From the NCBI GenBank assembly GCA_947628235.1, contig CANQZC010000004.1, positions 12,314 through 76,313 of the forward strand: 64,000 nucleotides of DNA, in the 5' to 3' direction. Of this stretch, positions 4,327 to 39,508 are shown piece by piece (position 1 is the stretch's first letter; each line of letters begins with the position of its first letter). The position numbers were made by a program, and so were the translations under genes. This stretch comes from an uncultured Bacilli bacterium. Lineage in GTDB: Bacteria; Bacillota_I; Bacilli_A; RF39; UBA660. The notes under the pieces are model-generated. The model was not told the origin of the DNA and ran no database searches. It saw only the letters and a list, made by a program, of their open reading frames with translations.

Positions 4327-4341
4327 GTGAATAAGAAAAAT

Positions 4342-7725: not shown

Positions 7726-8160
7726 ATGAGAGAGTCATTTTGGGGTGTTATGATTATAGGAATGGGAATAGTATCTATGTTTCTTGTATACTTTTTCCAA
7801 TCTATCACTAACACGGATGAGCATAATTATGAATTGTTAAAAGAAACAACGGAAGCAGCAATGTATGACGCGATTGATCTTGCTGCTTACCGTTATGATG
7901 AAACAGTTCGAATTGATAGAGAAATTTTTGTAGAAAGTTTCTTTAGAAGATTCGCACAGGATGCAACTTTACAACATCAATATCATGTTTGGATTTATGA
8001 TGTTCATGAGGAACCACCTAAAGTTAGTATTAGAGTAGAGACGATGGGATCTGAAATTTCTACGACGATGAGTGGTGGAGACAGCATTAATTTTAAATTA
8101 ACGGATACAATTAATGCCATTTTGGAAACAAAATGGGGTGTTAATGGATATGGAGGATAG
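7726..8160 (+). CDS. TadE-like pseudopilin/minor pilin candidate
   Basis: The MRESFWG N-terminus followed by a hydrophobic helix is shared with the ORFs at 12445 and 13000 (MRESIG, MREAVG). The small size fits a TadE/TadF-like protein. Confidence 0.35.
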   Translation: MRESFWGVMIIGMGIVSMFLVYFFQSITNTDEHNYELLKETTEAAMYDAIDLAAYRYDETVRIDREIFVESFFRRFAQDATLQHQYHVWIYDVHEEPPKVSIRVETMGSEISTTMSGGDSINFKLTDTINAILETKWGVNGYGG

Positions 8161-8165
8161 AAAAT

Positions 8166-9026
8166 ATGAATAATTTTATGATTTCTGCAAAAAGACTTAT
8201 CACAAACAAAAATACCGTTACCATCATAGGCGTTCTTATCGTTCTTGTTATTCTATACTGGGGATATAAGTCTACTATTGATAATGCGGTAAAACCAGTT
8301 AGTGTTCCATTTGCTAATAAGTTAATTGGACCACAAACTGAGATTACAGCTGATGATATCAGTTGGAAAAATGTTGCTAACGCAGCAAAAGATAATACAG
8401 TATTGATGAGAGAAAGCGACATTGTTGGAAAATACACTGCTGTAAATGCTACGATTCCAGAAGGAAGTATGTTTTATAGTGATGTATTAATCAATAAGGA
8501 AGATCTTCCTGGTTCTTGGTTAACAAGAATTAAAACAGATGTTAATGGAGTACCTGAAATTCCTTATTACATTTCTGTAAATATCGTTACTACATTTGGT
8601 AAATCTATTCAACCAGATGATTATATTGATATTTATATGAAAGCAAAAGATGAATCAGACTTGATTATGTTCGGTAAACTTATCGAAAATATTCAAGTAT
8701 TAGCAGTTAAAGATATGAGTGGTGAAGATGTTTTCAAAGATGTTGATAGCGATGCTACTCCAGCTTACTTATATTTCGGTGTATCTAGTGAGTTACATGA
8801 CTTATTAAGAAAAGCTTTATATTTAAGTAGTATTGGTGTTGAAATCATCGTTGTACCACATGGAGGTATTTCTCCAGTTACTGGAGATGTAGTTGTAAGT
8901 AGTGCTTATCTAAGAGACTATATCGATGCACACAGTGTTGTTATTCCAACAGATGAAGAATATGTTGAAAACTTAGATGGAAGCAATACAAATACAAACA
9001 CTGGAACAAATCCAGCAGGAAATTAA
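8166..9026 (+). CDS. CpaB/RcpC-like Flp pilus assembly protein
   Basis: An N-terminal TM is followed by a SAF-like segment (ITADDISW ... GKYTAVNATIPEGSMF). Placement just upstream of the CpaF ATPase supports the call. Confidence 0.45.
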   Translation: MNNFMISAKRLITNKNTVTIIGVLIVLVILYWGYKSTIDNAVKPVSVPFANKLIGPQTEITADDISWKNVANAAKDNTVLMRESDIVGKYTAVNATIPEGSMFYSDVLINKEDLPGSWLTRIKTDVNGVPEIPYYISVNIVTTFGKSIQPDDYIDIYMKAKDESDLIMFGKLIENIQVLAVKDMSGEDVFKDVDSDATPAYLYFGVSSELHDLLRKALYLSSIGVEIIVVPHGGISPVTGDVVVSSAYLRDYIDAHSVVIPTDEEYVENLDGSNTNTNTGTNPAGN

Positions 9027-9069
9027 TAAAAAGTAAAAAGAAGAATGAATAAAAAGGCTTGGTGAATAT

Positions 9070-10395
9070 ATGGATAATATATTTGATCAGATGGACTTCG
9101 GTTCATTACAACAATATCTTGACAATGACGATGTAACCGATATTTCCTACAGTAATGGAGGACAATTATGGTTAAAGACATTATCTCATGGTATATTTAG
9201 AGTAGAAAATCCTTTAATCGATAACAATTTCATGGAAAAGTTAGCATTCCAATGTTCCAATGTTGTTGGTCATAGTTTCAACGCAGCTCACCCTTTCCTA
9301 GATAGTGAAAGCGCTGAGTTGCGTATGAACTTTATCCATGATTCTATCGCTCGAAATGGGATTGCATGTGTTATTCGTAAAACACCAGCAAAGATTCGTT
9401 TGGAACATGATAAAATTATTGAAGAAAAATATATTACAGAAGATATTCATGATTTATTAATTCGTTGTGTTCACGGTCATTGTAATATGATTGTATCTGG
9501 AGAAACTGGTTCAGGTAAAACTGAGTTTGTAAAATACTTAGCTTCTCACACATACGAAAATGAAAAATTGATAACGATAGAGGATACCCTCGAACTTCAC
9601 TTGGATAGAATTTATCCACACAGAGACATCGTTGCTATGAAAACAAATAATGTTGCTAGTTATACCGATGTACTTGTTTCTTGTATGAGACAGAACCCTA
9701 AATGGATATTACTTTCCGAGGTTCGTAGTGCAGAGGCAGTACTTGCTGCCAGAAACTCTATTTCTTCTGGTCACTATATTCTTTCTACTATCCATGCCGA
9801 TAGGGCAACATCTATCCCTAACCGTATGTATAGTTTGCTAGAAACAAACCAAGAAATTGATCAATTCTTAAGATCTATCTATCGATATATTCAAATTGGT
9901 ATTTATATCCGTGGATATCAAGATAGAGTATCTAAAAGATTTGTTCGTGAGATTGCGGAAGTTTGTGAATTTTATGTTACGGAAGAAAATGAAGCAAAAT
10001 ATAATATTTTATTTCAAAAAACTCCAGCAGGAAAAATTACAAAGCATCCGCCAAGCAAATATTTAGTTGCTTATTTGGAGGCTCAAGGAGTTATCCTTCC
10101 AGAAGGTTTTATGGCAGGAGAAGCTACCGACAATGGAGTTTCTGCCTCTGAGACACTAGAAAAGGAAGATCCTTTCGCAGAACCTGCAAATAGCGAAGAA
10201 GGAGAAGGAGGACAAGAAGTACAACCTACTTCAACAGTTCCTACTGCCCCTGTAAGTCAACCAATGAATCCTATGGCAAGTCAACCTCAACCCACGATGA
10301 CTGTGCCACAACAAGTGAGTCCAATGACTCAACCACAAATGATGGCTCAAATGCCACCACAGGCAAGTCCAACGACTGCTTTTCCAACACAATAA
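9070..10395 (+). CDS. CpaF/TadA-family (VirB11-like) secretion ATPase with a C-terminal P/Q/T/M-rich tail
   Basis: Walker A GETGSGKTE, the ILLSEVRSAEA Asp-box region and the TIHA His-box are present. The last 90 or so aa are low complexity. Confidence 0.8.
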   Translation: MDNIFDQMDFGSLQQYLDNDDVTDISYSNGGQLWLKTLSHGIFRVENPLIDNNFMEKLAFQCSNVVGHSFNAAHPFLDSESAELRMNFIHDSIARNGIACVIRKTPAKIRLEHDKIIEEKYITEDIHDLLIRCVHGHCNMIVSGETGSGKTEFVKYLASHTYENEKLITIEDTLELHLDRIYPHRDIVAMKTNNVASYTDVLVSCMRQNPKWILLSEVRSAEAVLAARNSISSGHYILSTIHADRATSIPNRMYSLLETNQEIDQFLRSIYRYIQIGIYIRGYQDRVSKRFVREIAEVCEFYVTEENEAKYNILFQKTPAGKITKHPPSKYLVAYLEAQGVILPEGFMAGEATDNGVSASETLEKEDPFAEPANSEEGEGGQEVQPTSTVPTAPVSQPMNPMASQPQPTMTVPQQVSPMTQPQMMAQMPPQASPTTAFPTQ

Positions 10396-10413
10396 TAGAA
10401 AAGGAGGAAAAAT

Positions 10414-11319
10414 ATGAGTGTAACAGTAATCTTTTTTATCTGCTCTGTTATTGTTATCTTCATCTTAGTCTATAGAAGTGCGAATGGAGAAAATGTATAC
10501 AAATATGTAAGTGATAGAACAGCTTTTATCTATGATCGATTTGCACCTTATTCTTTTAAGACGATTCGTGACAAGGTAAAAGATTTAGGACAAGAATATA
10601 CGACGCACCAATACATTGTACAAGTTGTCAGTTTTGCTTTAGGTGCAGCAGTAATTTCTTACTTATATTTCTATAACTTAATTATTTCTGTCATTTATGC
10701 TATTATTGCTGTTTGCTTTATTCCTTATTTGACATATTTACGGTGTAAAAGAATTTACAGTGAATTTATTTTCGAGCAAATTCAAATTTACACAACTAAT
10801 ACAATTATGGAATTCGCAACAACACAATCTTTCGTTAAGGCACTAGAAGGTGTTTACGAATCTGGAGTACTTGAAGATCCTGTAAAGACAGATGTTAAAG
10901 TCATGATTGATATGTCTTATGAAAATGGTACAATTGATCAGTCTTTAAGTTTTATGAGTACTAAATATGACTTCTATATGGTAAAGAATATGCATCAATT
11001 GTTCTTACAAATTACGAATGAAGGTGCAAAGGATACTGCTGAGTCTCTAGAAAACATGTCACAGGATATCGATATGCTTGTTGAAAATGTATATCGAGAT
11101 AGACTAGACAGAGCTCAGTTTCATAAGAAGTTCTTACAATTTGGTATTATCTTATACTTTATGTGTATGTTACTTCAGTTCTTATTAGGATCTGAAACTT
11201 ATCTAGAAATGCTTGAGAGATGGTATGTACAATTGCTACTTCACGCGATTTTAATTGTTAATACTTTCTTCTTACTAAAAGGAGAAAAATACTATAATGA
11301 GAATGTAGGTGCGGAATAA
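10414..11319 (+). CDS. TadB-like (GspF-family) membrane protein
   Basis: Topology of an N-terminal TM, a cytoplasmic domain, then paired TMs. It sits directly after the CpaF-like ATPase and its stop overlaps the next start (TAATG). Confidence 0.45.
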   Translation: MSVTVIFFICSVIVIFILVYRSANGENVYKYVSDRTAFIYDRFAPYSFKTIRDKVKDLGQEYTTHQYIVQVVSFALGAAVISYLYFYNLIISVIYAIIAVCFIPYLTYLRCKRIYSEFIFEQIQIYTTNTIMEFATTQSFVKALEGVYESGVLEDPVKTDVKVMIDMSYENGTIDQSLSFMSTKYDFYMVKNMHQLFLQITNEGAKDTAESLENMSQDIDMLVENVYRDRLDRAQFHKKFLQFGIILYFMCMLLQFLLGSETYLEMLERWYVQLLLHAILIVNTFFLLKGEKYYNENVGAE

Positions 11320-12104
11320 TGGAATTTATAATTATTGCAGTTATTATTGTATTTATTTTGAACTATAACCGTGTAGTAGATACCAATCGGTTTGTTACCG
11401 ATACGGAACCATACTTTAGAGCATTGATGGAAGATGATTATGTTTTCTTACTTAATATTCGTTATCCAGGCCGTGATATTAATGTTAATGAATTATATGG
11501 AATTCGTGTAAGAAATGGTATTATTACGATTATTGCTTTAATCTTCTTATTCTTTAATCAATTATCTTTTATTTACATATTAATTGCTTTTATTGCTGGA
11601 TATCTAGTATTTAAAAGCCCATATAATTCTTTAAAATCTTATTACAAAGCAAATTTACACCATATTAACTTGATGCTTCCTTACTATTTAAAGAGTTTGG
11701 AAATCTTGGTACAACACTATACCGTACCAGTAGCATTAAGTAGAAGTATTGATACAGCTCCAGAAGTATTCAAGCCAGGACTACAAAGATTAGTAGCCAG
11801 AATTGATGCCGGAGATTCTAGTATTCAACCTTATATTGATTTTGCTAATGAATATCCAGTTCGTGATTCTATGCGTATGATGCGTTTGTTATATCGTTTA
11901 GGATTAGGATCTCAACAGGATAAGCACGAACAAGTTATGATGTTCTCTAGAACCGTTTCTGCTTTACAAAATAAGGCAAGAGAACAAAAATATAAGGAAC
12001 GCCTAGAAACCATGGAAAATCAAACCATGATTATGTTATTCTCTACTGGTGGTGGAGTTATGGGACTTATGTTACTATCTATGATGGTACTTATGACCTT
12101 TTAA
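11319..12104 (+). CDS. TadC-like (GspF-family) membrane protein
   Basis: Similar GspF-like topology; position in the gene order. Confidence 0.45.
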   Translation: MEFIIIAVIIVFILNYNRVVDTNRFVTDTEPYFRALMEDDYVFLLNIRYPGRDINVNELYGIRVRNGIITIIALIFLFFNQLSFIYILIAFIAGYLVFKSPYNSLKSYYKANLHHINLMLPYYLKSLEILVQHYTVPVALSRSIDTAPEVFKPGLQRLVARIDAGDSSIQPYIDFANEYPVRDSMRMMRLLYRLGLGSQQDKHEQVMMFSRTVSALQNKAREQKYKERLETMENQTMIMLFSTGGGVMGLMLLSMMVLMTF

Positions 12105-12114
12105 TCAAAATTTA

Positions 12115-12144
12115 TTGAAAAATAAAAAAGTAATGTGTTATAAT
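12115..12144 (+). promoter_or_regulatory. Sigma-A type promoter: TTGAAA, 18 nt spacer, TATAAT with an upstream TGT (extended -10)
   Basis: The hexamers can be read directly in the intergenic region upstream of the small pilin gene. Confidence 0.4.
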
Positions 12145-12171
12145 AATGTTAGAATGTAAGGTGGTGAGAGA

Positions 12172-12411
12172 ATGAAAGAAGCTGCAGGTGAAGCAAACTT
12201 AACTGTAGTTGCAATTATCTTAATTGCAGTAATCGTAGCAGTAGCTACCCCATTAATCAATAGTTTGATGAGAAGTTCAGCTAGAAGATCTTGCTGTACT
12301 GATGCCGGAGGTGTTTGGAAAAGCAACAACTGCATAGCAGCATCAAATGACAGAACTGGTCAATTCGACTCTGCTGGATATTCAAGCTGCGTATCAGAAG
12401 CTGGACAATAA
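12172..12411 (+). CDS. Small Flp/class-III-signal-peptide-like pilin candidate with a Cys-rich C-terminus
   Basis: A short charged leader MKEAAG is followed by a 25 aa hydrophobic helix. The protein is 79 aa and lies between TadC-like and TadE-like genes. It is noncanonical because the G/XXXXEY motif is absent. Confidence 0.4.
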   Translation: MKEAAGEANLTVVAIILIAVIVAVATPLINSLMRSSARRSCCTDAGGVWKSNNCIAASNDRTGQFDSAGYSSCVSEAGQ

Positions 12412-12444
12412 TCCGTTCATGTAAATTTATAGGAGGTAATAGCT

Positions 12445-12978
12445 ATGAGGGAAAGCATAGGGACTTCATTTATGTTAAATTTTATAGTTTTATTTATATT
12501 TTTAGTGTTTGCCTTCTTAGCTGGAACTTTTAGCTATTACAAGGCCTATAGAGTTAACAATTATATCGTTAACTCTCTTGAAATCTATGAAGGATATAAT
12601 GAATATTCAAAGGATCAAATGGATGTAGGACTAACTAGTATGGGATATGATATTACAACAAAGATAGATTGTCCAAGTACATGGGAAAACACGAGTCAAA
12701 GTTATTTGGCGCGTGAAAATGGAGAAATTGCTAAATTTAATGTAATAGGGCAAAGAGCTTTAGTGGATTTAAACCATCCAGACGAGGGATATTGCGTTTA
12801 TTTGTATTGGAATGATGATTCCACTCTTGCCGCAGACAATTCCTATGGATTGGAAACAACAGATGTTTACTATACTTATGGTGTCTTAACATACATGAAA
12901 TTTCGTTTTCCTGTCATTGAAAACATTTTGAGAATTCCTATATTTTCTAGAACCAATAGAATGTATTATTTTGGATAA
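12445..12978 (+). CDS. TadE/TadF-like pseudopilin candidate
   Basis: The MRESIG N-terminus plus a hydrophobic helix is paralogous to the ORFs at 7726 and 13000. Confidence 0.35.
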   Translation: MRESIGTSFMLNFIVLFIFLVFAFLAGTFSYYKAYRVNNYIVNSLEIYEGYNEYSKDQMDVGLTSMGYDITTKIDCPSTWENTSQSYLARENGEIAKFNVIGQRALVDLNHPDEGYCVYLYWNDDSTLAADNSYGLETTDVYYTYGVLTYMKFRFPVIENILRIPIFSRTNRMYYFG

Positions 12979-12999
12979 GTTAGAATGGGGTGAGCCTAG

Positions 13000-13473
13000 A
13001 TGCGTGAGGCAGTTGGAAATACTTTTATTGTAAATTTATTATTAGTCTTTTTAGGCGTTATGTCTGCTTTACTAATAGGATCTATTAGTTATTCTAAGGC
13101 GTTCAAAGTAAAAAATAGAATTATTTATATTATTGAAAAATATGGTGACTGGGATGTTACGGCAGGTGGAGAAAATTTGGTTCAAGCGGAAATAGAAGCT
13201 AACTTGAGAGATATTGGGTATCATTTAGCTTTAGCCAATAGAGAGTGTCCACCTAGAGACGGTGCTTTAACAAAATATGGTACCAATAGTACTACCACTA
13301 GTAGAACTACTTATCATTATTGCGTTTATGAGTATAACAATGAGAAAGGCCACTATTTTGGTGTGACATCATATATGCACTTTGATTTGCCTTTAATTGG
13401 AAATTATATTGAATTTCCTGTATATGGGGAGACTAAGTCATTGTATGATGTAGGTCAGCACTACAATAATTAA
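13000..13473 (+). CDS. TadE/TadF-like pseudopilin candidate
   Basis: The MREAVG N-terminus plus a hydrophobic helix. Confidence 0.35.
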   Translation: MREAVGNTFIVNLLLVFLGVMSALLIGSISYSKAFKVKNRIIYIIEKYGDWDVTAGGENLVQAEIEANLRDIGYHLALANRECPPRDGALTKYGTNSTTTSRTTYHYCVYEYNNEKGHYFGVTSYMHFDLPLIGNYIEFPVYGETKSLYDVGQHYNN

Positions 13474-13492
13474 CAAAGAAAGGTGATATTGC

Positions 13493-14467
13493 ATGAATGT
13501 TATCGTTTCTAATAAATATCAATTGATGCTAGAAAATCTAGGAATCGATGTTATTAAAAGTTTAAATGGGGAGTTTGAGGCTGATGAAATTATTAGCACT
13601 TTCCAAAACTTTTTTTATCAAAGAATGATTCTTGATATCACAGCGATTAAGGATTATAAGGATATTAGAAATCTTCAAAAATTATCTATAGCTTTACCTA
13701 TGGAAAAAGTAATTCTTTTACTAGATGATACAGAAGAAAGTACCTCTCCTGCTTATCTATCTAAGTTGATTTCTATGGGAATTTACAATTTTACAAGAAA
13801 TGTTGATGGAATTCAATATTTGTACAACCATCCAAATAGTTATCGTGATGTTGCACAATTCCATCAATTAGACGAAGTAGCTGTTGTTCCACAAATGCCA
13901 AATCAAGTTACACAAAATGTTGTTGTTCAAAATATTGGAACGGGTTATAGTGGAAGAATTATCGGTGTAAAAAATATTACCAAAAGTTCTGGCGCAACTA
14001 CATTAGTATATATGATGTATAATGAATTATCTAAGTACTATAATGTGGCAGCTATTGAAGTTGATAAAACCGATTTTACTTATTTAAAAACGCCAGGTCT
14101 TGTTTCTACTGTTAGTGGAAATGTAAATAGTGAAGTAGGTAAATATCGCGACTGTGATGCTATTATCATCGATGTCAATAACAGTGTTCAAGCAGAAGGA
14201 TTATGTAATGAAATCGTTTATTTGATTGAGCCTTCTGTTATCAAATTAAATCGTTTAACAATGGTAACTCCTCAAGTTTTACGAAATCTAAAGGATAAAA
14301 AGGTTGTATTAAATAAAAGTTTATTAAGTTCAAAAGATGTATTAGATTTTGAATATGAAGCAAGAATTAAAGTATTCTATAATCTTCCGCCTCTTGATGA
14401 ACGTGAAAAGAAAAATAAACCACTCGTTGAATTCTTAAATAAATTAGGTTTTGATCGAGTACAATAA
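13493..14467 (+). CDS. TadZ/CpaE-like protein with a receiver-like N-domain and a degenerate ParA/MinD P-loop
   Basis: The N-terminal 120 or so aa look receiver-like. The sequence GVKNITKSSGATTL occupies the place of the KGGVGKTT P-loop. The position matches that of tadZ. Confidence 0.35.
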   Translation: MNVIVSNKYQLMLENLGIDVIKSLNGEFEADEIISTFQNFFYQRMILDITAIKDYKDIRNLQKLSIALPMEKVILLLDDTEESTSPAYLSKLISMGIYNFTRNVDGIQYLYNHPNSYRDVAQFHQLDEVAVVPQMPNQVTQNVVVQNIGTGYSGRIIGVKNITKSSGATTLVYMMYNELSKYYNVAAIEVDKTDFTYLKTPGLVSTVSGNVNSEVGKYRDCDAIIIDVNNSVQAEGLCNEIVYLIEPSVIKLNRLTMVTPQVLRNLKDKKVVLNKSLLSSKDVLDFEYEARIKVFYNLPPLDEREKKNKPLVEFLNKLGFDRVQ

Positions 14468-14492: not shown

Positions 14493-15275
14493 ATGAGAAG
14501 TAAATTAACAAAAACTATTATTTTAATAGTTTTTGTCGTGTTTTTAGGGATAAAAAATGTAAGTGCTCTTACATGTACTTACTCAAGAAATGTTAGTGGT
14601 GAAGAACAAACATATACCATCAATTTAACTACTAAAGCGGTGACTTATACGTATTTTCGTATTCCTATGGCAGAACCTCAGACGACAAATAAGACGATGG
14701 TATTTTCTTTTACTACTTGTCCACCCTCTATTACTGTAACTGGAAACACCATTGCAGACGGCGGTAGTAGTGGAGATTATAAATTAAAAACTCCTACTTC
14801 GTCTTCCTCTTCCTCTTCAAATCTTGAGTATGGCGGAGGTGTTGGTCAGCTAACACACGAATCTAATGTAACTAATTGTGGAAGTATCACAGACATTCCA
14901 AGTGCTATTCCTAAAACAACAAAAATTATTTATATGTTTTTACAAGTTCTTATCCCTGTTATTTTAGTGATTATGGGAATGCTAGATTTAACAAAAGGTG
15001 TTATGTCTCAAAAAGAAGATGAGATAAAAAGAGGACAGCAAACTTTAGTAAAAAGATTGATTGCTGCGGCGATGGTCTTCTTTGTATTTGCACTTGTGAA
15101 AATGCTTGTTAGTTTTGTATCTGATGGTAATACTACTGTCACAGACTGCTTAAATTGCTTTATATCTGGCGAATGCGATGATACTGTTCCTCCTGTTGAA
15201 GGGGAAGAAAGTTCGTCTACTATGGTTCTTGAATGGAATGAAAGTTCAGATGCTCAGATTGCTATGGTAAGTTAG
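14493..15275 (+). CDS. Secreted hairpin-family protein P1 (VirB2/TrbC-like two-helix pilin-like domain) with a larger N-terminal region
   Basis: The ATG at 14493 follows a GAGGTGA RBS. It has a signal peptide and the conserved ...GMLDLTKGVMSQKEDEIKRGQQTLVKRLI... loop between two hydrophobic helices. A CG..I..IP motif and a C-terminal CLNCF complete the pattern. Confidence 0.6.
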   Translation: MRSKLTKTIILIVFVVFLGIKNVSALTCTYSRNVSGEEQTYTINLTTKAVTYTYFRIPMAEPQTTNKTMVFSFTTCPPSITVTGNTIADGGSSGDYKLKTPTSSSSSSSNLEYGGGVGQLTHESNVTNCGSITDIPSAIPKTTKIIYMFLQVLIPVILVIMGMLDLTKGVMSQKEDEIKRGQQTLVKRLIAAAMVFFVFALVKMLVSFVSDGNTTVTDCLNCFISGECDDTVPPVEGEESSSTMVLEWNESSDAQIAMVS

Positions 15276-15285
15276 GAGGACTAAT

Positions 15286-15813
15286 ATGAAAAAATTTTTT
15301 ACGATATTTCTTTTATTAGGAACTCTTTTGATAGTAATTGGAACCAGTCCTGTTCCTGTTTATGCAGATGAAGCTCCAGCATGGCTTAGTGGAGAGAAAG
15401 TTTCTTGTGGCAATATTCAAAATATTCCTAAAAAGGTTCCAGAATTTGTTAGTATGTTTATTTTAATAGCACAAGTAGTAGTACCTGTCTTACTAGTTTT
15501 ATTTGGTATGATAGATTTTGCGAAAGGTGTTATGTCTCAAAAAGAAGATGAAATCAAGAAGGGTCAACAAACTTTTATAAAAAGATTGTTGGTGGGTGCT
15601 ATCGTCTTCTTCGTCGTAGCGCTTGTCAAGATGCTTGTTAGTATTGTAGGAGATACGGATACTAATAAAGAAAATATTATTTCTTGTATCGATTGTTTTG
15701 TTAATGGAGTAGAAAACTGTGGAGGAACATCTTCTGGTGGAGGTGGAGGCGGTAATCCAGACCCAGGAAGAAATCCTACTGTAGATCGTTATCCAACTTA
15801 TGAACAAATTTAA
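15286..15813 (+). CDS. Secreted hairpin-family protein P2 with a Gly-rich C-terminal tail
   Basis: Signal peptide ending VYA; motif GMIDFAKGVMSQKEDEIKKGQQTFIKRLL; SCIDCFVNG. Confidence 0.6.
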   Translation: MKKFFTIFLLLGTLLIVIGTSPVPVYADEAPAWLSGEKVSCGNIQNIPKKVPEFVSMFILIAQVVVPVLLVLFGMIDFAKGVMSQKEDEIKKGQQTFIKRLLVGAIVFFVVALVKMLVSIVGDTDTNKENIISCIDCFVNGVENCGGTSSGGGGGGNPDPGRNPTVDRYPTYEQI

Positions 15814-15867
15814 CTACTTTTCAATTGATAAAAAAAATAGTATAATGACTTTGAAGGAGTGTATGTT

Positions 15868-16266
15868 ATGAAAAAGGAAAATTTAAGAATGCTAAGTTTA
15901 ATGAGCGTACTTTTTGTAGGTCTATTTGTACTGGCATCACCAGTTCATGCTCTTGAATGTGTTGGTGTAACAGTTGATGCTAATATTGTTAGAGTAGTTC
16001 ATTCTGTAATTGTATTAATTCAAATTGTAGCGCCAATCTTACTTGTTATTTTTGGTATGTTAGATTTAGCAAAAGGTGTTATGGCACAAAAAGAAGATGA
16101 AATCAAGAAGGGTCAACAAACTTTTATAAAAAGATTGATTACTGCAGCGATTATTTTCTTCGTTATAGCGCTTGTTAGAATGTTAGTAAGTTTTGTAACC
16201 GGTGATGGTTCTGATAGCGAGATTATGACATGTATTGATGCATTCATCAATGGTGAAAATTCGTAA
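15868..16266 (+). CDS. Secreted hairpin-family protein P3 (minimal pilin-like form)
   Basis: The ATG at 15868 lies 8 nt after GAAGGAG. It has a signal peptide ending VHA. Its motif GMLDLAKGVMAQKEDEIKKGQQTFIKRLI contains a 51-nt tract identical to P2. Confidence 0.6.
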   Translation: MKKENLRMLSLMSVLFVGLFVLASPVHALECVGVTVDANIVRVVHSVIVLIQIVAPILLVIFGMLDLAKGVMAQKEDEIKKGQQTFIKRLITAAIIFFVIALVRMLVSFVTGDGSDSEIMTCIDAFINGENS

Positions 16267-16283
16267 CTAGCAGGAGGTTACTA

Positions 16284-17381
16284 ATGGTAGAAAAATTAAA
16301 ACAACTGGATAAGAAGGTTTATATCATGGGAGGTATTGTGTTAGGAATAATTGTTCTCCTAATCATTCTCTTGGTAGTTATAAAAATTTTATCTGGTCCA
16401 GGCAAAAATTATAGTAAATTAGAAAAAAAATTATCTTCTGCAGCAGAAAGTTATTTAAAAGCTAATCCAGATTCTGTTCCTGCTGATGGGGAAAGTATTG
16501 AATTAGATTCAGCAACTTTAATTTCTGCTGGAAAGTTAAAAGAATTAAAAAAATATGTAGATGATGAGTGCACAGGTCGTGTTTTAGTTAGAAATAACGG
16601 TGGACTAGCCCAGTATTTACCACACTTAGATTGTACAAATTATACCACACAGCATCTTTATGATAAGGTCATTGAAGATAATCTTGTTGTTGATTCTGAA
16701 AATCCATATGAAGGTGGACTATATGAAGTTAACGGAGAATACATTTTCAAAGGGAAAAATGTTAATAACTATGTTTCTTTTGGTACTCTTACATGGAGAA
16801 TCATGAAAATCGATGAAAATGGCAACTTAAGACTTATTAAAACTAGTGCAGAAAAAGCGAAAAAGATATGGGATAATAAGTACAATTCAGATTTAGATAA
16901 AAATTATGGAATCAATGATTATGAAAATAGTTATCTTAGAGAGGTTCTAGACCAAAGTTACAAAGGAGTAACAGAAAAGAATCGTGCTCACATTATTCCA
17001 CATGATGTTTGTGTAGGAAAAAGAGCAAAAAACAATATGACTCTTTCTTATGATATTGATTGTGCAAGTATCTTAGAAAAACAATATATTAGTGTTATTA
17101 ATACTTTAGATTATCCAATGGCCAGTCTAGATGAAAATTGTAAAAAGGTAGGCGATGGTGCTTGTTCTAATTACAATTATCTAAATGGTACAATTAGTAC
17201 TAGTTGGACAAGTATTGGTGTTAGTGATAACTCTTATGAAGTATATGATATCAGTGCTGGTTATGTAAGTACTTTAAGAGCAAGACAAACCGTAAGTTAT
17301 AGTTGGGTTATCTATCTTAGCGGTCAAGAACTATATACAAAGGGTTCTGGAACTGCAGAAGATCCATATGTAATCCAATAG
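16284..17381 (+). CDS. Membrane-anchored extracytoplasmic protein (single N-terminal TM), unknown function; it is inserted within the hairpin-gene array
   Basis: Hydrophobic segment at residues 15-35, then a 330 aa hydrophilic domain containing Cys residues. Confidence 0.4.
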   Translation: MVEKLKQLDKKVYIMGGIVLGIIVLLIILLVVIKILSGPGKNYSKLEKKLSSAAESYLKANPDSVPADGESIELDSATLISAGKLKELKKYVDDECTGRVLVRNNGGLAQYLPHLDCTNYTTQHLYDKVIEDNLVVDSENPYEGGLYEVNGEYIFKGKNVNNYVSFGTLTWRIMKIDENGNLRLIKTSAEKAKKIWDNKYNSDLDKNYGINDYENSYLREVLDQSYKGVTEKNRAHIIPHDVCVGKRAKNNMTLSYDIDCASILEKQYISVINTLDYPMASLDENCKKVGDGACSNYNYLNGTISTSWTSIGVSDNSYEVYDISAGYVSTLRARQTVSYSWVIYLSGQELYTKGSGTAEDPYVIQ

Positions 17382-17387
17382 AGATTT

Positions 17388-17416
17388 ATTGACAAACAAA
17401 AATAGGTATAGTATAA
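17388..17416 (+). promoter_or_regulatory. Consensus sigma-A promoter: TTGACA, 17 nt spacer, TATAAT
   Basis: Perfect hexamers can be read directly. A GAGGAGG RBS lies 6 nt before the P4 ATG. Confidence 0.55.
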
Positions 17417-17441
17417 TTATTATAATTAGAGGAGGAAGAAA

Positions 17442-17831
17442 ATGTTACAAGTTTTAGCAAATATTGATACAAATTTAACTTACACTTGTGGAGACATTGG
17501 AATGAGTTTTAATGGGATGCTTCCATATGTTGTATCTATGATCGTTTTGATTATCAAGATCGTAGTACCAATTTTATTAATTATCTTTGGTATGTTAGAT
17601 TTGGCAAAAGCAGTTATGGCCCAAAAAGAGGATGAGATTAAGAAAGGTCAACAAACTTTCATTAAAAGACTTATTGCTGCTGTTATTGTATTCTTTGTAA
17701 TTACTATTGTTCAAATGATTATTAGTTTCGTATCAAATGATAATGATAGTATTGCAAGTTGCTTTAAATGCTTTGTTAACGGTGATGCTAGTGCATGTAC
17801 ACCAGATTCATCAACACAAGTTGGATTCTAG
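17442..17831 (+). CDS. Hairpin-family protein P4 with no cleavable N-terminal signal peptide; candidate major pilin-like subunit
   Basis: Motif GMLDLAKAVMAQKEDEIKKGQQTFIKRLI; SCFKCFVNG. It has its own consensus promoter upstream and two terminators downstream. Confidence 0.6.
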   Translation: MLQVLANIDTNLTYTCGDIGMSFNGMLPYVVSMIVLIIKIVVPILLIIFGMLDLAKAVMAQKEDEIKKGQQTFIKRLIAAVIVFFVITIVQMIISFVSNDNDSIASCFKCFVNGDASACTPDSSTQVGF

Positions 17832-17937: not shown

Positions 17938-20073
17938 ATGGAATATATAGTAAAGATTTTAAGAACATTATTTTTCCACATAGATCGTGTTGTTTATGAA
18001 GGAATTGGAAGTGTTTATGATTTGTTGTTAAGAATAGCTAGAACAACTATTCTTAGTGACGATATGATCGGTGATTTTAGTGAGAGAATTTATGCCCTTA
18101 TTGGGATTTTTATGCTATTTAAGATTAGCATATCTCTCATTACATATGTTTTAAACCCGGACGAGTTTGTTGACAAGGAAAAAGGATTCTCTTCTATCAT
18201 AAAAAGAGTCGTTATTTCCCTCTTTTGCTTAGCTCTTGTTCCATACGGCTTTAAAGAACTATTTAGTTTGCAAACCATTTTATTAGAGGACAATACTTTG
18301 GCAGCTATATTTTTCGGCGATATTGATGATAGCGCCTATAAAATTGATACTGCGGGAGATAAAATAAAATTTATTTTGATGTATACATTCTTTCAACCAA
18401 ACTATCAGGGACTCTATGAAAATGAAGGTAATACTAAACTAGCAAGTTGCGCAATTACTTATGAATTTGAAGAAGTCTCTGGCTCTAGTCAGGGTAGAGT
18501 CAAGAAAAATGACGATGGCGCTTTTATGCTAAATCAAGAATGTTTCGGAACTTATAATGCAGATAGTCATGAATATGTACCATCAACTCCAGATACAAGT
18601 GCGCTTAATAGTGATTCTGATTATGGATCATATTGGGATGATAAAGATCTTTACCAAACTTATGCACAGGGTGTTGCTAGACAGAATTTTTACTTAATGT
18701 TTAGACACAATATAGCAATGGCTGAAAGAGGGAAAGATAAAGGTCTATATCTAGTAGATTATATGGCACCACTTAGTACAGCCGTTGGAGTAGCTGTTCT
18801 TTGGGTTTTAATTTTATTCTGTATTGATGTTGCTGTTCGTAGCGTAAAATTATCATTCTATCAGTTAATCGCGCCAATTCCAATCTTATCTTATGTAGAT
18901 CCTAAGAGTAAAGATGGAATGTTTACTAAATGGCTAAAACAAGTTGGAACAACTTTCTTAAGTCTATTTATGAGGTTAATTGCTTTATATTTAGCAATAT
19001 ACTTAATCTCTGAAGTTTCTGAATCAGGAATCAGAGATGTTATAACAGGAGAAAGAGTAACTGACTGGTGGGTACAAATCTTTGTTATCATCGGTGTGTT
19101 AATGTTTGCAAAACAATTACCAAAGATTCTTGAAGATACTTTAGGAATTAAGGGGACTGGTGATTTTACATTAAATCCATTAAAGAAGCTAGAATCTATT
19201 CCAGGTGGAAAAATGTTATCTGCTCCAGTTAAAGCAGTCGGAAATCTAGGAAAAGGTATTGCACGTGGAGCAACCTTAGGTGTTGGAGCAGCAGCTGGTG
19301 TAGGAATTGCAGGATTAGTAACTGGTCAAGGACTTCGTGGCGGCGCTATGGGAAAAGCTTTATTAGGTGCTGCTAGAGGAGAAAAATTTGGTAAAAACTT
19401 TGCAACTTCTTATGGAGCTGGACGAGCTAGAAAGAAAGAATTGGATCAGATGAAAGCAGATGGTGTTAGTGCAAGCCAAGTTAGAGGCGAGAAATTTTAT
19501 AATGCTTTCCATGGTGAAACCAAAGCAGAACATGTACAACATGCAGTAGATACAGCAAAAGCAATTCAAAGTAGATATGAATCTTATGAAAAAACAGCAG
19601 TAGGTGTCGATTCTTATGCAAAATACGCAGATAAACAAGCTAAGGCAGCTGCGGCTAGAGGTGATTTTGAATGGCAAAGAACTTGGGAGGACATTCGTGA
19701 TGACAGAATAAAAGAAATTCATACGAAAAATGGTGAAATTTCTACTTCTAAAAATGTAAGTGATTCATCATTCTTTGTAACGGATGCACATGGAACCGTT
19801 GATTATAGTCGTAGACTTGACAAAACTGGTGTAGAAGAAGGAACAACTCAGGTAAATGCAGCCTTGGCAAACTTAGCACATAGCATGACGCAACTTGCAA
19901 CTCAGTTCAACGAACAATATTCAACAGTGGCTGGATATTCTAAAATTGATGGAACTAAGGATCCAAAGGGTATGAAAAATGAGGCTCTTGGTGCTCAACA
20001 ATCTATTGAAACTAACTCTGCAAATACAACTATAAACGATGTTGCAAAATATACTGGCGGTTCTAAAAAATAA
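17938..20073 (+). CDS. VirB6/ConG/TcpH-like polytopic membrane protein with a Gly/Ala-rich hydrophilic C-terminal region
   Basis: It is 711 aa with 5 or more TM segments spread over the first 400 aa. It lies upstream of VirB3-like and VirB4 genes. Confidence 0.45.
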   Translation: MEYIVKILRTLFFHIDRVVYEGIGSVYDLLLRIARTTILSDDMIGDFSERIYALIGIFMLFKISISLITYVLNPDEFVDKEKGFSSIIKRVVISLFCLALVPYGFKELFSLQTILLEDNTLAAIFFGDIDDSAYKIDTAGDKIKFILMYTFFQPNYQGLYENEGNTKLASCAITYEFEEVSGSSQGRVKKNDDGAFMLNQECFGTYNADSHEYVPSTPDTSALNSDSDYGSYWDDKDLYQTYAQGVARQNFYLMFRHNIAMAERGKDKGLYLVDYMAPLSTAVGVAVLWVLILFCIDVAVRSVKLSFYQLIAPIPILSYVDPKSKDGMFTKWLKQVGTTFLSLFMRLIALYLAIYLISEVSESGIRDVITGERVTDWWVQIFVIIGVLMFAKQLPKILEDTLGIKGTGDFTLNPLKKLESIPGGKMLSAPVKAVGNLGKGIARGATLGVGAAAGVGIAGLVTGQGLRGGAMGKALLGAARGEKFGKNFATSYGAGRARKKELDQMKADGVSASQVRGEKFYNAFHGETKAEHVQHAVDTAKAIQSRYESYEKTAVGVDSYAKYADKQAKAAAARGDFEWQRTWEDIRDDRIKEIHTKNGEISTSKNVSDSSFFVTDAHGTVDYSRRLDKTGVEEGTTQVNAALANLAHSMTQLATQFNEQYSTVAGYSKIDGTKDPKGMKNEALGAQQSIETNSANTTINDVAKYTGGSKK

Positions 20074-20093: not shown

Positions 20094-20426
20094 ATGGGAC
20101 AATATTTAATACCGGCTAACTCGAAAAAATCCATGCTAATATTAGGTGTATTTAATCAACTTGACTTATGGATATTTCTAGTTGGATTACTCATTTCGTT
20201 AGTATTACTATTAATACTTCCAGTGGACCAATTGCCGTATGCAATTACGGCAATTGCCCCTGGTGCATTTTGTGCATTCTTGGTAATGCCAATACCAAAC
20301 TATCACAATGTGCGTACTTTTTTTAGAGTAGCATTTGTATTTTATACAACTAGACAACATTTTGTATGGAAAGGATGGTGCTTTAATAGTGGCGAAGACG
20401 GCGAGAAGCAAGTATACAGAAGCTGA
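20094..20426 (+). CDS. VirB3/PrgI-like small two-TM protein
   Basis: It is 110 aa with two hydrophobic helices and sits immediately upstream of VirB4. Confidence 0.4.
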   Translation: MGQYLIPANSKKSMLILGVFNQLDLWIFLVGLLISLVLLLILPVDQLPYAITAIAPGAFCAFLVMPIPNYHNVRTFFRVAFVFYTTRQHFVWKGWCFNSGEDGEKQVYRS

Positions 20427-20934
20427 TGTTCCTGTAAAAAGCATTACGAATGGTACTATTTTACTAGATAATGGTCAAAAGGTTACTGGTGTTAAAATTA
20501 TGCCTAGAAATATCTTTATCTTGGAACCAGCAACGCAGAATGCCATTATTACTAACTTAAAAACAGTATTCAATGTTATCGATTTTGAATTCTGGATTAT
20601 TGTTGCTGATAGACCAGTAGATATTAATGTATATCTTTCTCAATTGCAATTACTATATAACACAACCACTGATCCTGCCCGTAGAAAGATTATTAACGAA
20701 GATATCAATAAAGCAAATATGTTTGCTGCTAATAATGTAGTTGATACAGAATACTTCTTAGTTTTTAAAGAGAAAGATAATGAACTTATCAATAAGAGAA
20801 TTAGAAACTTAATTGGAAACTTTGCAAATGCTGGATTAACGGCATTCCAAACAACCAATGACGATTTAAGAATGATTTTAGACAACTTCTTAAATGGTGG
20901 TATGACAACAGAATTTGGGACGGTGTTATCATGA
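20335..20934 (+). CDS. VirB4 N-terminal-domain-like protein encoded as a separate ORF; start uncertain (the ATG at 20335 overlaps the previous gene; a GTG at 20389 follows AAGGATGG)
   Basis: Its 199 aa plus the next ORF's 595 aa add up to a typical VirB4 length, with Walker A about 440 aa from the combined start. Its stop overlaps the next start in ATGA. Confidence 0.4.
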   Translation: MYFIQLDNILYGKDGALIVAKTARSKYTEADVPVKSITNGTILLDNGQKVTGVKIMPRNIFILEPATQNAIITNLKTVFNVIDFEFWIIVADRPVDINVYLSQLQLLYNTTTDPARRKIINEDINKANMFAANNVVDTEYFLVFKEKDNELINKRIRNLIGNFANAGLTAFQTTNDDLRMILDNFLNGGMTTEFGTVLS

Positions 20935-22718
20935 TGGATGTTAGAAGCCAAATTGCTCCTAAAGGCTTGGAGTTTAAACCTGCTTCTTTTGTAATAAGTG
21001 ATAAATATGCAACCATCTTAACGGTTATTGGATATCCTAAATATATTTATCCTGGATATTTATCATCTTTAACATCTATGTCAGGTATCAAATTAGTTAT
21101 TAAAAATATCCCACTTCCTTTTAGCTCTATTCAAAAAATGTTAAACAAGGAAATTGCGGATTTAAAACAAAGATATCAAGATGAACATGATAGAACGATT
21201 CAAGAGCGTATTAGACAAGACTACGACTCTTTGGAACAATTCGTTTCTGAGTTAGCTGCTAGTCAAGCAAAAATCTATGATTTTCAAATGCATATTATGA
21301 TTACAGCCAATTCTGAAGATGAATTAACGGTAAAAAAATTACAAGTAAGAAATTATTTGGAAGCAATGGAGATGAGAGCAATCCCACTTCGCTTCGAACA
21401 AGAAAAAGTATTAAAATCTATGTTAGCAATCTATCCTAAACAGGATATTGAAGATAGAATTGGAACTCCAATTCCAGCGCCAACGATTGCTGCTATGTAT
21501 CCATTTATTTTTGATAGTATTAAGGACCCAGGACTTTCTACTTTATTAGGGGTAGACTTTTCTGGTGGAGTTATTTTGTTTAATCAATTCTTATATCAAA
21601 TTAAGAAGGAGCACAATCGAAATAACGCTAATATGATTATCCTTGGTACTTCTGGTAGTGGTAAATCTACTGCTGCTAAACTATTACTTAGATCACATCT
21701 TCGTAATAACAATCAAATTGTTGTTATTGACCCTGAAGGGGAACTTGAAGATATGTGTAAACTCTATAGTGGAGACTTTATCAGTTTAGGTAAAGGTGGA
21801 GATTTCGGTATGATTAATCCCCTTGAAGTAGTTATGGATGCTGATGAAGAAGAGATTAAGCAAGGACTAGGATACACAACTTTAACGAGAACTTTACAAT
21901 CTGTAAAAGCATTCTTGAAGTATTATGATCCAACAACAGAAGAAGATGTTACCAATATGTTTAGTGAGATTCTTCAGGAAACTTATCGAAGATTTAACAT
22001 TAACTTTGAGACAGACTTTACAAAGTTGACATCTGAAGATTATCCAACTTTAAAAGATGTTTACGCAACGATTAAAGGAAAAATCTTATCTATGCCAGAA
22101 AGAACACAAGAAAGAGATGTTTTGGAAAGACTAGAGTTAAAGATTCGTCCACTTATCAAGGAATTAAGATATTACTTTGATGGACATACAACAATTCATT
22201 CTAATAGTGATTTCATTGTATTTAACATTAAGGAGTTAATGAATTCTGATACAAATATTAGAAATGCATTATTCTTCAATGTTCTTAAGTTTGCATGGAG
22301 TTTAACTCTAGATGCTTCTCATAATACGGTATTAATGGTTGATGAGGCACATGTATTGTTAAGTAATCAAAATGCCTTAGGTGCGGATTTCTTAGCGCAA
22401 ATTCAAAGACGTGCTAGAAAATATAACACAGGAACCATTATTATTACACAACAACCAACCGATTTCTGTGATCCAGCCGTATTTGTTCAAGGAAAAGCAA
22501 TTTTTGATAACGCTTCTTATTATTTAGCAATGGGATTAAAGAAGCAAGCAGCTGAAGATTTAGCTCGTTTAATTGATTTAAATGAAAGTGAAATTGACAG
22601 TATTAAGAGATATGGTCAAGGAGAAGCATTATTCATATGCGGTTCAAGACGCATGAGAATTAATATTGTTGTAACAGATGAAGAATTAGAGTCTTTCGGT
22701 AAAGGCGGAGGACTATAA
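20931..22718 (+). CDS. VirB4-family type IV secretion ATPase (ATPase domain portion)
   Basis: Walker A ILGTSGSGKSTAAKLL; Walker B region VLMVDEAH; a C-terminal region typical of VirB4, PrgJ, TcpF and TraE. Confidence 0.8.
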   Translation: MMDVRSQIAPKGLEFKPASFVISDKYATILTVIGYPKYIYPGYLSSLTSMSGIKLVIKNIPLPFSSIQKMLNKEIADLKQRYQDEHDRTIQERIRQDYDSLEQFVSELAASQAKIYDFQMHIMITANSEDELTVKKLQVRNYLEAMEMRAIPLRFEQEKVLKSMLAIYPKQDIEDRIGTPIPAPTIAAMYPFIFDSIKDPGLSTLLGVDFSGGVILFNQFLYQIKKEHNRNNANMIILGTSGSGKSTAAKLLLRSHLRNNNQIVVIDPEGELEDMCKLYSGDFISLGKGGDFGMINPLEVVMDADEEEIKQGLGYTTLTRTLQSVKAFLKYYDPTTEEDVTNMFSEILQETYRRFNINFETDFTKLTSEDYPTLKDVYATIKGKILSMPERTQERDVLERLELKIRPLIKELRYYFDGHTTIHSNSDFIVFNIKELMNSDTNIRNALFFNVLKFAWSLTLDASHNTVLMVDEAHVLLSNQNALGADFLAQIQRRARKYNTGTIIITQQPTDFCDPAVFVQGKAIFDNASYYLAMGLKKQAAEDLARLIDLNESEIDSIKRYGQGEALFICGSRRMRINIVVTDEELESFGKGGGL

Positions 22719-24763: not shown

Positions 24764-24766
24764 GAG

Positions 24767-25456: not shown

Positions 25457-25466
25457 GAGGTGCTAT

Positions 25467-26855: not shown

Positions 26856-26864
26856 GAGGAATTT

Positions 26865-31007: not shown

Positions 31008-31023
31008 GAGGAGGAAAATATAA

Positions 31024-39496: not shown

Positions 39497-39508
39497 GGGT
39501 AGAAAAGT

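Follow-up and report, generated by a model that had tools for sequence, protein, structure and literature searches.

Until 2025, Gram-positive bacteria were thought to lack VirB2-type subunits in their type IV secretion systems (T4SS). This view was overturned for plasmids by a preprint on pCF10, in which PrgF is described as an essential VirB2-like protein and VirB2-like candidates are reported in 95% of 174 Gram-positive plasmid classes (ter Beek et al., bioRxiv 10.64898/2025.12.18.695078). A review of December 2025 gives VirB2 homologs as absent from Gram-positive T4SS, with Patescibacteria as the sole monoderm exception (PMC12857230). In Patescibacteria, 441 VirB2 arrays of 2-11 genes were described in 2025. 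These genes lie in tandem or are split by a non-pilin gene, and they adjoin MPF_FATA-like T4SS genes, mostly without a relaxase; the profiles used include PF04956 and PF18895 (PMC12102498). In this study, we focused on a stretch of 64,000 nucleotides (the window) from an uncultured Bacilli bacterium (assembly GCA_947628235.1, contig CANQZC010000004.1, positions 12,314 to 76,313), part of a low-GC (~33%) Firmicute chromosome, which encodes seven proteins, P1 to P7, with a common module of two hydrophobic helices joined by a charged loop. We found no paper on this protein family or on the Tad-T4SS gene cluster of uncultured gut Bacilli to which it belongs.

We conclude, with a probability of about 0.6, that P1 to P7 are paralogous VirB2-type pilin-like subunits, of a distant PF18895 lineage, of a chromosomal T4SS without a relaxase in uncultured gut Bacilli. 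Support for it comes from homology to PF18895, a conserved position beside T4SS genes, the two-helix architecture, the cysteine statistics, the features of P4 and the published cases above.

Results

Seven proteins with one module

A hidden Markov model (HMM) built from six of the modules was run against the six-frame translation of the window and recovered exactly seven module-bearing open reading frames (ORFs), at E 1e-32 to 1e-53. The next-best match stood at E 0.06. These seven are the proteins to which a sequence-only reading of the window had assigned the shared module (P1 to P4, P5 and the C-termini of P6 and P7). The back-translated degenerate DNA pattern for QKEDEIKKGQQT has 4 sites in the window, where 0 are expected. 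The seven genes, and the module-free gene p365 that stands among them, are the following.

P1, 14493..15275, + strand: 260 aa, 6 mature Cys; signal peptide, ~115-aa N-terminal ectodomain, pilin-like hairpin, CLNCF and one further Cys, acidic tail
P2, 15286..15813, + strand: 175 aa, 4 Cys; signal peptide, hairpin, CIDCF and one further Cys, Gly/Pro-rich tail
P3, 15868..16266, + strand: 132 aa, 2 Cys; minimal form with signal peptide, CIDAF
p365, 16284..17381, + strand: 365 aa without the module; N-terminal transmembrane (TM) helix and ectodomain, no family match
P4, 17442..17831, + strand: 129 aa, 4 Cys; leaderless pilin-like protein, directly upstream of the VirB6-like gene
P6, 33528..34823, + strand: 431 aa, 14 mature Cys; signal peptide, Cys-rich ectodomain, helical stalk, C-terminal pilin-like hairpin
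P7, 34864..36189, + strand: 441 aa, 14 mature Cys; stalk and hairpin as in P6, unrelated N-terminal head
P5, 43728..44174, + strand: 148 aa, 4 mature Cys; orphan pilin-like gene amid housekeeping genes

P1 to P4 had been described as four genes in a row. P1 to P3 are adjacent, but p365 separates P3 from P4. This gene is itself kept at the same position in 48 of 75 related loci, and a search of PDB sequences with its product gave no match. The gene-order counts given here and below refer to these 75 distinct loci, which were fetched out of 167 encoding stretches returned by a scan of 185,579 species genomes.

Kinship with the PF18895 pilin family

PF18895 ('T4SS_pilin'; 71 profile positions, gathering cut-off 26.6 bits) is the top Pfam match of P7, P5 and P6, which score 25.4 bits (E 1.5e-5), 25.0 bits (E 2e-5) and 24.5 bits (E 2.8e-5) with 65-70 of the 71 positions aligned. 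P4, P1 and P3 score 14.3, 14.1 (E 0.051) and 12.4 bits. The P5 group comprises nine proteins, the query and eight orthologs. Eight of the nine match PF18895 at E <= 0.01 (best 4.9e-6), and two (orthologs P0272 and P0277) are flagged PF18895.6 in precomputed Pfam annotation, as are at least 15 of 63 P7 homologs, including more distant proteins of 325-591 aa. The three subfamilies were compared with hhalign. The main P1-P4 family matched the P5 family over the whole length, including the cysteine motifs (99.6%, E 7e-25), and the P6/P7 module at 98.9% (E 1.4e-17); the P5 family matched the P6/P7 module at 98.0% (E 2.3e-13). All seven modules are thus homologous to members that match PF18895.

When 52 family members were scanned against Pfam one by one, PF18895 was matched in 7, PF04956 (TrbC/VirB2) in 3 and the unrelated DUF621 in 19. 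Single-sequence matches alone are therefore not decisive, since unrelated membrane families are also matched. The hhalign links together with the flagged orthologs therefore indicate that all seven proteins form one family straddling the PF18895 threshold. The earlier proposal of a VirB2/TrbC-like pilin kinship holds as far as PF18895 homology and T4SS neighbours are concerned, but direct homology to TrbC/VirB2 (PF04956) is unsupported.

Distribution and conserved gene order

In a set of 5.8 billion proteins, P3 has 1396 homologs, almost none with a Pfam domain and with 'hypothetical protein' as the sole name given. The family profile matches 8352 clusters (50% identity) at E <= 0.001 and 3649 at E <= 1e-10. 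The gene cluster was found in ~60 species-level genomes. The carriers are nearly all metagenome-assembled genomes (MAGs) titled uncultured Bacilli, Tenericutes, Mycoplasmatota, Erysipelotrichaceae or Firmicutes CAG:884, and they come from rabbit, deer, sheep, goat, mouse, pig and human guts. The same Firmicute-type cluster also occurs in loci titled Muribaculaceae, Bacteroidaceae, Roseburia or Actinomycetes (L018, L019, L022, L043, L044, L051, L061 and L031), which are probably mis-binned contigs or mislabelled MAGs. None of 72,556 plasmids matched P5 in tblastn at E <= 10, from which we take the family to be missing from sequenced plasmids.

The related loci hold 1-6 modules per 20 kb, most often 4, in a near-fixed order: TadZ-like gene, 2-4 module genes, p365, P4-like gene, an optional P6/P7-like gene, VirB6, VirB3-like gene, VirB4 N-domain, VirB4 and CHAP gene. 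A module gene stands directly upstream of the VirB6-like gene in all 64 loci that hold the latter. In the window, P1-P4, P6 and P7 lie within a co-oriented block (~1939-36189) flanked by scpA/scpB and RNase R. The T4SS genes of this block are as follows.

17938..20073, + strand: VirB6/TrbL-like polytopic membrane protein, 711 aa; Pfam TrbL_4 E 1.3e-5, sub-cut-off
20094..20426, + strand: VirB3/PrgI-like small membrane protein, 110 aa; named from position and a weak N-terminal match to Mbov_0397
20335..22718, + strand: VirB4-type ATPase in two ORFs, 20335-20934 N-terminal domain (199 aa) and 20931-22718 ATPase (595 aa)
22742..27557, + strand: cell-wall hydrolases and lipoproteins of the T4SS (CHAP protein, lipoprotein, SpoIID and C39-like protein, LppM-like lipoprotein)
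27576..29783, + strand: VirD4-type coupling protein; Pfam T4SS-DNA_transf E 3.8e-57

The NCBIfam matches of the VirB6-like protein are all sub-cut-off (MMCAP2_0566 E 1e-9, pLS20_p028 E 9e-8, Mbov_0396 E 1.7e-6), and searches of PDB sequences with this protein and with the P7 family found nothing. The VirB3-like protein matches the Mbov_0397 profile weakly (E 0.81, positions 2-79), and its gene is kept in 62 of the 75 loci. The two VirB4 ORFs match positions 101-276 (E 6.9e-15) and 296-893 (E 1.2e-103) of NF045975, the 894-position NCBIfam model of Mycoplasma-ICE VirB4 (ICE, integrative and conjugative element), and the ATPase also has a Pfam AAA_10 match. Measured against that model, VirB4 is spread over separate genes, namely the VirB3-like one and these two. 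A pseudogene was ruled out as the meaning of the split, which is conserved in 58 of 58 related loci. The coupling protein scores 292 bits against the NCBIfam CD1115 family, above the cut-off of 250. By these matches the T4SS of the window resembles the Mollicutes-ICE / MPF_FATA type.

Domain scans found no relaxase or integrase domain in the ORFs of at least 90 aa between 1939 and 36189, and there is no tRNA in the window. Origin as an ICE was ruled out, since neither relaxase, integrase nor tRNA was found and the flanks are syntenic. The conserved context, with no mobility genes found, thus suggests that the system has long been part of the chromosome and is not an ICE.

The orphan P5 gene also has a conserved place. 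Its orthologs (54-62% identical) occupy the same position between GerQ and the U32 peptidase in two other genomes, within the syntenic context RNase R, PGA_cap, SmpB, SpoVG, YabP, DivIC, LemA, GerQ, P5, U32 peptidase and GreA. In one relative (L081:6609-9633), an array of alternating ~102/122-aa genes directly follows the P5 ortholog, and one of them is a weak WXG100 match. The inserted array may represent cargo of the type VII secretion system kind near pilin genes.

A conserved subunit and its diverging paralogs

P4 has its own promoter.

17389..17417, + strand: sigma-70-type consensus promoter TTGACA-17-TATAAT, 12/12 match, 25 nt upstream of P4

In the intergenic region between p365 and P4 of 48 related loci, the promoter matches at 12/12 in 31 and at 11/12 in 16 (47/48 together). 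It is retained although the proteins there have diverged to ~60% identity. The P4-like proteins of these 48 loci are all leaderless and share the N-terminus M..L....YTCG..G..FSG..PY. The identity ranges below were obtained by comparing each window protein with its best match in the related loci.

VirB4: 97-80%, median 81%
P4: 92-60%, median 63%
P3: 66-48%, median 53%
P2: 72-43%, median 48%
VirB6-like: 62-37%, median 40%
P1: 50-32%, median 37%

P4 is the most conserved paralog, and P1-P3 diverge fast. The VirB6-like protein, the C-terminal half of which is long and hydrophilic, evolves at the pace of the variable pilins. Because P4 is leaderless, most conserved, provided with its own consensus promoter and adjacent to VirB6, it is likely, as far as these features go, that this candidate is the major structural subunit and is strongly expressed. 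P1-P3 look like fast-evolving variants, and P6/P7 and P1 look like carriers of variable ectodomains. The idea that the paralogs are interchangeable, as put forward previously, is therefore too simple: one is conserved under its own consensus promoter and P1-P3 diverge fast.

Within the window, the cores of P1-P4 are 57-70% identical in amino acids, and identity at the third positions of identical codons reaches only 57-79%. As synonymous sites have diverged, the conserved loop of P1-P4 was judged not to stem from recent duplication or gene conversion; the shared loop is therefore kept by purifying selection. The modules of P6 and P7 are the exception. With 91% nucleotide identity, they alone of the seven look recently homogenised. 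The last 200 residues of P6 and P7 are 54% identical and the last 85 near-identical, while their N-terminal heads (~230 aa) are unrelated, a pattern suggestive of swapped heads or of gene conversion in the 3' part. The P6/P7-like gene of many relatives sits between the P4-like gene and VirB6 and not at the distal end of the block.

Hairpin, loop and leaders

Hydropathy analysis of all seven proteins gives two hydrophobic segments on either side of a charged loop, the net charge of which is positive. No other part of the protein, the TM helices included, is as well conserved across 52 family members as the loop; the residues conserved in >=90% of members are K69, A73, Q74, K75, D77, E78, I79, K80, K81, G82, Q83, Q84, F86, I87, K88 and R89. 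The loop had been called invariant. It is identical in P3 and P4 and near-identical in P1 (K->R, F->L, I->V) and P2 (which ends RLL), but it has clearly diverged in P5 (SPDEILKARGKLIKKFI) and in P6/P7 (SEDE(I/M)KK(V/A)SG(R/K)FVKRLI). The proposed long Sec leader of the VirB2/TrbC type was not borne out, since the leaders are ordinary signal peptides of 23-29 aa and P4 has none. The stop-to-stop ORF of P4 starts only 4 codons upstream of the ATG, hence there is no room for a leader.

In an AlphaFold 2 model of P3 (mean predicted local distance difference test score, pLDDT, 76.7), the signal-peptide helix is followed by a small beta-hairpin (29-36) and then by two long helices, 38-73 and 76-110, which meet in a turn at A73-Q74; a further short helix (117-128) lies at the C-terminus. 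For P7 (pLDDT 82.3), the model shows residues 32-255 as a beta-rich head, 271-342 as a helical stalk, and 357-393 and 397-430 as the hairpin; no structural relative specific to P7 was found. Fold and PDB searches do not discriminate, as a long helical hairpin matches thousands of chains, and the sole match of the family profile among PDB sequences was a melatonin receptor at E 9.6. The two TM helices and short charged loop that define VirB2-like pilins are present throughout, whereas the small size is not, because P1, P6 and P7 carry added ectodomains. The 147 cluster representatives examined are the best among the matches listed (top 150, all E < 1e-32); of these, 82 are N-terminally extended, 25 C-terminally extended and 40 minimal.

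Several results weigh against a pilin role. No window protein attains the PF18895 gathering score, the shortfall being 1-14 bits, and P1, P3 and P4 match the profile at E 0.04-0.17, amid noise matches to unrelated membrane families. PF04956 (TrbC/VirB2) is unmatched by the window proteins and weak in the 3 of 52 family members that match it (best E 2.6e-4). P1 and P3 reach 10.7 and 11.2 bits (E 0.2-0.3) against the NCBIfam model NF045849 (Mbov_0395 pilin-like), the cut-off of which is 40, and the comparison with PrgF of pCF10 that had been suggested gave no relationship, with an hhalign probability of 0.2%. An N-terminal extension of more than 70 aa, as in the 82 representatives, is uncommon in filament subunits. 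The hosts live as anaerobes in the gut, which bears on the disulfides discussed below. Filament formation is a prediction made by analogy.

These points lead to the main rival, in which the hairpin is a mere membrane anchor for displayed ectodomains. The proteins would then remain in the cytoplasmic membrane as surface-display or T4SS accessory proteins, such as adhesins and channel-lining or docking factors, and would form no filament; the conserved cytoplasmic loop would bind the machine ATPase or VirB6. The large extracellular extensions in most representatives, the ~230-aa heads of P6 and P7 on a common stalk and the fold searches without a specific pilin match are all in keeping with such an anchor, as is the statement in the PrgF preprint that no pilus has been visualised on a Gram-positive T4SS (bioRxiv 10.64898/2025.12.18.695078). 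However, the module is homologous to PF18895, and the minimal forms P3 and P4 hold almost only the hairpin. The loop is better conserved than the TM helices, as expected of a lumen or assembly interface, and the consensus promoter of P4 is consistent with an abundant structural subunit. We therefore regard the anchor explanation as unlikely, although it is the most serious of the alternatives.

Cysteines

The mature cysteine counts of P1-P7 (6, 4, 2, 4, 4, 14 and 14) are all even, as is the count in 122 of the 147 listed representatives when a crude signal-peptide rule is applied. A C-terminal motif of the CxxC type had been ascribed to P1-P5; P3 deviates from it, with CIDAF (CxxA) and a single C-terminal cysteine. 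Among 120 close homologs, 97 carry a single cysteine ahead of helix 1 and three behind helix 2; another 18 carry one on each side. Of 504 distinct relatives aligned through the C-terminus, 441 have both the second CxxC cysteine and the last cysteine, 47 have neither and 16 have just one of the two, counts that are not independent events because the sequences are related. Proteins of the P6/P7 type keep one cysteine on either flank of the hairpin, right ahead of helix 1 and right behind helix 2. This pattern fits two bonds, a staple from the cysteine before helix 1 to the first cysteine after helix 2, and a local bond from the second CxxC cysteine to the last one. Parity and co-loss of the cysteines thus support the disulfide staple of the sequence-only reading; the bond itself, and its equivalence to cyclisation, we infer.

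A further possibility is that the four conserved cysteines remain reduced or coordinate a metal in a Zn-type Cys4 site. A CxxC motif with two more cysteines is a classic metal-binding pattern, the hosts live in the anaerobic gut, and no Dsb/Bdb-like gene was seen among the scanned cluster proteins, although no search was aimed at thiol-oxidoreductases. Members of the P3 type, with just one N-terminal and one C-terminal cysteine, fit pairwise bonds, and the same is true of P6/P7-type proteins, whose single cysteine on each side of the hairpin does not suit a Cys4 site. The even counts of the ectodomain proteins (6, 14 and 14) likewise speak for pairing, and metal binding or reduced cysteines seem improbable to us.

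The Tad-like module and other neighbours

The pilin array is preceded by a second apparatus.

7726..14467, + strand: Tad-like type IV filament module with DUF5411, RcpC/CpaB-like, T2SSE ATPase and two polytopic membrane proteins
within 7726..14467, + strand: rest of the Tad-like module, namely small pilin-like genes (12172-13473) and a TadZ-like 324-aa protein

The best NCBIfam matches of the T2SSE ATPase are VirB11, TadA and TrbB. The labels TadB/C, Flp, TadE and TadZ rest on position and sequence features only; no T2SSF model matched the two polytopic membrane proteins (10414-12104), and no prepilin peptidase was seen among the cluster proteins. The small proteins of the module have MKEAAG/MRE(S/A)xG N-termini, and an 11/12 promoter with TG extension (12115-12144) lies upstream of the 79-aa pilin-like gene. 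The gene order of module and array is kept in 45-66 of the 75 loci.

This linkage raises the question of whether P1-P7 are substrates or accessory subunits of the Tad-like machine and not of the T4SS. The array does start right after the TadZ-like gene, co-oriented with the Tad-like module, and the two modules are always linked in the related loci. On the other hand, the proteins have no class III (prepilin) signal and possess a two-helix hairpin in place of a single N-terminal helix, and the Tad-like module has small pilin-like genes of its own. A module gene abuts VirB6 wherever VirB6 is present, P5, P6 and P7 sit away from the Tad genes, and the PF18895 matches point to T4SS. We consider assignment to the Tad-like machine very improbable. 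Two-TM proteins with a charged loop are common and many unrelated membrane families appear among the Pfam matches (e.g., DUF621), yet the idea that P1-P7 are holins, bacteriocin-immunity or exclusion proteins placed in the cluster by chance can hardly be maintained, given the position conserved across ~60 species, the PF18895 links, the scanned cluster proteins with no lysis or bacteriocin genes among them and the paralog arrays with ectodomains, which do not fit it.

Other genes of the region are noted here. At the head of the cluster are a 533-aa membrane protein (1939-3540), a 230-aa secreted protein with a C-terminal TM helix (3634-4326) and a 1130-aa Cys-rich secreted protein (4327-7719). 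These three have no Pfam match and are partly kept in relatives (8-27 of the 75 loci, within the fetched flanks). VirD4 is followed (29868-31299) by a 379-aa protein with WGEQAIQDVK-type repeats and then by a DUF4176 protein. The housekeeping gene RmuC (31309-32391) lies inside the secretion block, between VirD4 and P6, and two tandem PGA_cap (CapA-like) paralogs (38354-40855) follow RNase R.

Discussion

If P1-P7 are VirB2-type subunits, their assembly might proceed as follows. P1-P3 and P5-P7 would be exported by a cleaved Sec signal peptide, and P4 would be inserted without a leader, as PrgF of pCF10 would need to be. Judged from sequence and the modelled hairpin, both termini would lie outside and the basic K/R-rich loop (...KGVMAQKEDEIKKGQQTFIKR...) in the cytoplasm. 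The outer ends would be tied by a disulfide between the cysteine before helix 1 and the first cysteine after helix 2, and most members would form a second, local disulfide between the second CxxC cysteine and the last one; both bonds are suggested by cysteine parity and co-loss. By analogy with the solved Gram-negative VirB2-type pili and with the PrgF_B2-PrgH model, the VirB6-like platform and the VirB4 ATPase may then extract the subunits from the membrane and stack them to form a short pilus or a conduit that crosses the wall. In it, the conserved loop would either face the lumen or touch the machine, with the variable termini and ectodomains on the outside. P4 would be the main structural subunit. 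P1-P3 and the ectodomain-bearing P1, P6 and P7 would be variant or minor subunits, in which a common polymerisation module would carry differing surfaces or adhesive heads. As VirD4 occurs without a relaxase, the substrate of the T4SS could be protein, or DNA by another route.

A more specific proposal, which we make tentatively, is that the Tad-linked, relaxase-less T4SS is a modular contact organelle fixed across the lineage, with a P4 fibre decorated by stapled paralogs and swappable ectodomains. If this were true, the organelle would serve adhesion or the exchange of molecules or DNA with other cells. It would be a functional parallel, in true Firmicutes, to the essential T4SS and pilin array of epibiotic Patescibacteria.

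As a VirB2-type family, P1-P7 and their relatives would be the third independent case, a very large one (its 8352 clusters are nearly all unannotated) and one in bona fide Bacillota. Features undescribed for other VirB2-like proteins are the cysteine pairs that possibly replace cyclisation, the near-invariant loop, the frequent ectodomain fusions and the split into one conserved, strongly promoted subunit and several fast-evolving ones. P4 and the VirB6-like protein are concrete targets for the question of whether Gram-positive T4SS build pili, and the cluster opens the question of what a non-conjugative T4SS does in abundant uncultured gut bacteria. The family could also extend Pfam and NCBIfam annotation to thousands of 'hypothetical' proteins.

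Among the known systems, those of the Patescibacteria or candidate phyla radiation (CPR; Southlakia epibionticum, TM7x) show several likenesses to the window. In both, divergent paralogs form tandem arrays, at times broken by a non-pilin gene, beside MPF_FATA-like VirB6/VirB3/VirB4 genes, and both are chromosomal and usually without a relaxase, with a type IV pilus system alongside (PMC12102498, PMC12857230). The hairpin module of the window aligns with the PF18895 profile over almost the whole length of the latter, the threshold of which is passed by some orthologs. However, the host of the window is a true member of the Bacillota, an uncultured gut Bacilli bacterium, and not one of the Patescibacteria. 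Its loop is almost invariant, whereas the CPR arrays average 25% identity. The cysteine pairs, the frequent large ectodomain fusions, the fusion with a Tad-like cluster and the leaderless conserved paralog with its promoter are found on the window side only.

PrgF (PrgF_B2) of the Enterococcus faecalis plasmid pCF10 is likewise small, with two TM helices and a short charged loop, and P4 resembles it in having no signal peptide. The order prgF-prgG-prgH (B6)-prgI-prgJ (B4) is the same as the pilin-VirB6-VirB3-VirB4 order of the window. In spite of this, there is no detectable sequence relationship (hhalign 0.2%). pCF10 is a plasmid with a relaxase and one essential PrgF; the window system is chromosomal, with seven paralogs and no relaxase found, and most of its paralogs carry signal peptides, cysteines and extensions.

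In the ICEs of Mycoplasma, a pilin-like gene (Mbov_0395, NF045849) is followed by a VirB6-like gene (Mbov_0396/MMCAP2_0566) and then by VirB4 (Mbov_0397), and the VirB6-like and VirB4 proteins of the window match those NCBIfam models best. Mbov_0395 itself is different: P1 and P3 match it at only E 0.2-0.3 (~11 bits against the cut-off of 40), and it has ~80 aa and, as far as its 80-position profile shows, no signal peptide or cysteine motif.

The TrbC/VirB2 family (PF04956: Agrobacterium VirB2, RP4 TrbC, F TraA) has the same hairpin topology and the same place of its gene beside virB3/virB4. Its charged loop is cytoplasmic in the membrane form and lumenal in solved pili; for the window proteins, the topology is deduced from sequence. 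The two termini are joined by cyclisation in that family and would be joined by the proposed disulfide in the window proteins. The differences are the sporadic, weak profile matches (3/52, best E 2.6e-4), leaders that are short (23-29 aa) or missing, no TraF-type cyclase/peptidase among the cluster proteins scanned, and a monoderm host. In the Trw T4SS of Bartonella, with its multiple variable VirB2/VirB5 genes, pilin genes have also been amplified and diversified beside a conserved machine, which is read as surface variation (PMC12857230). That system is Gram-negative, lacks VirD4 and targets erythrocytes, and it has no sequence relationship to the window proteins. Taken together, the kind of system is already known, and the case of the window is distinct in its host lineage, in its chromosomal fixation and Tad-like linkage, and in its cysteine pairs, ectodomain fusions and subunit specialisation.

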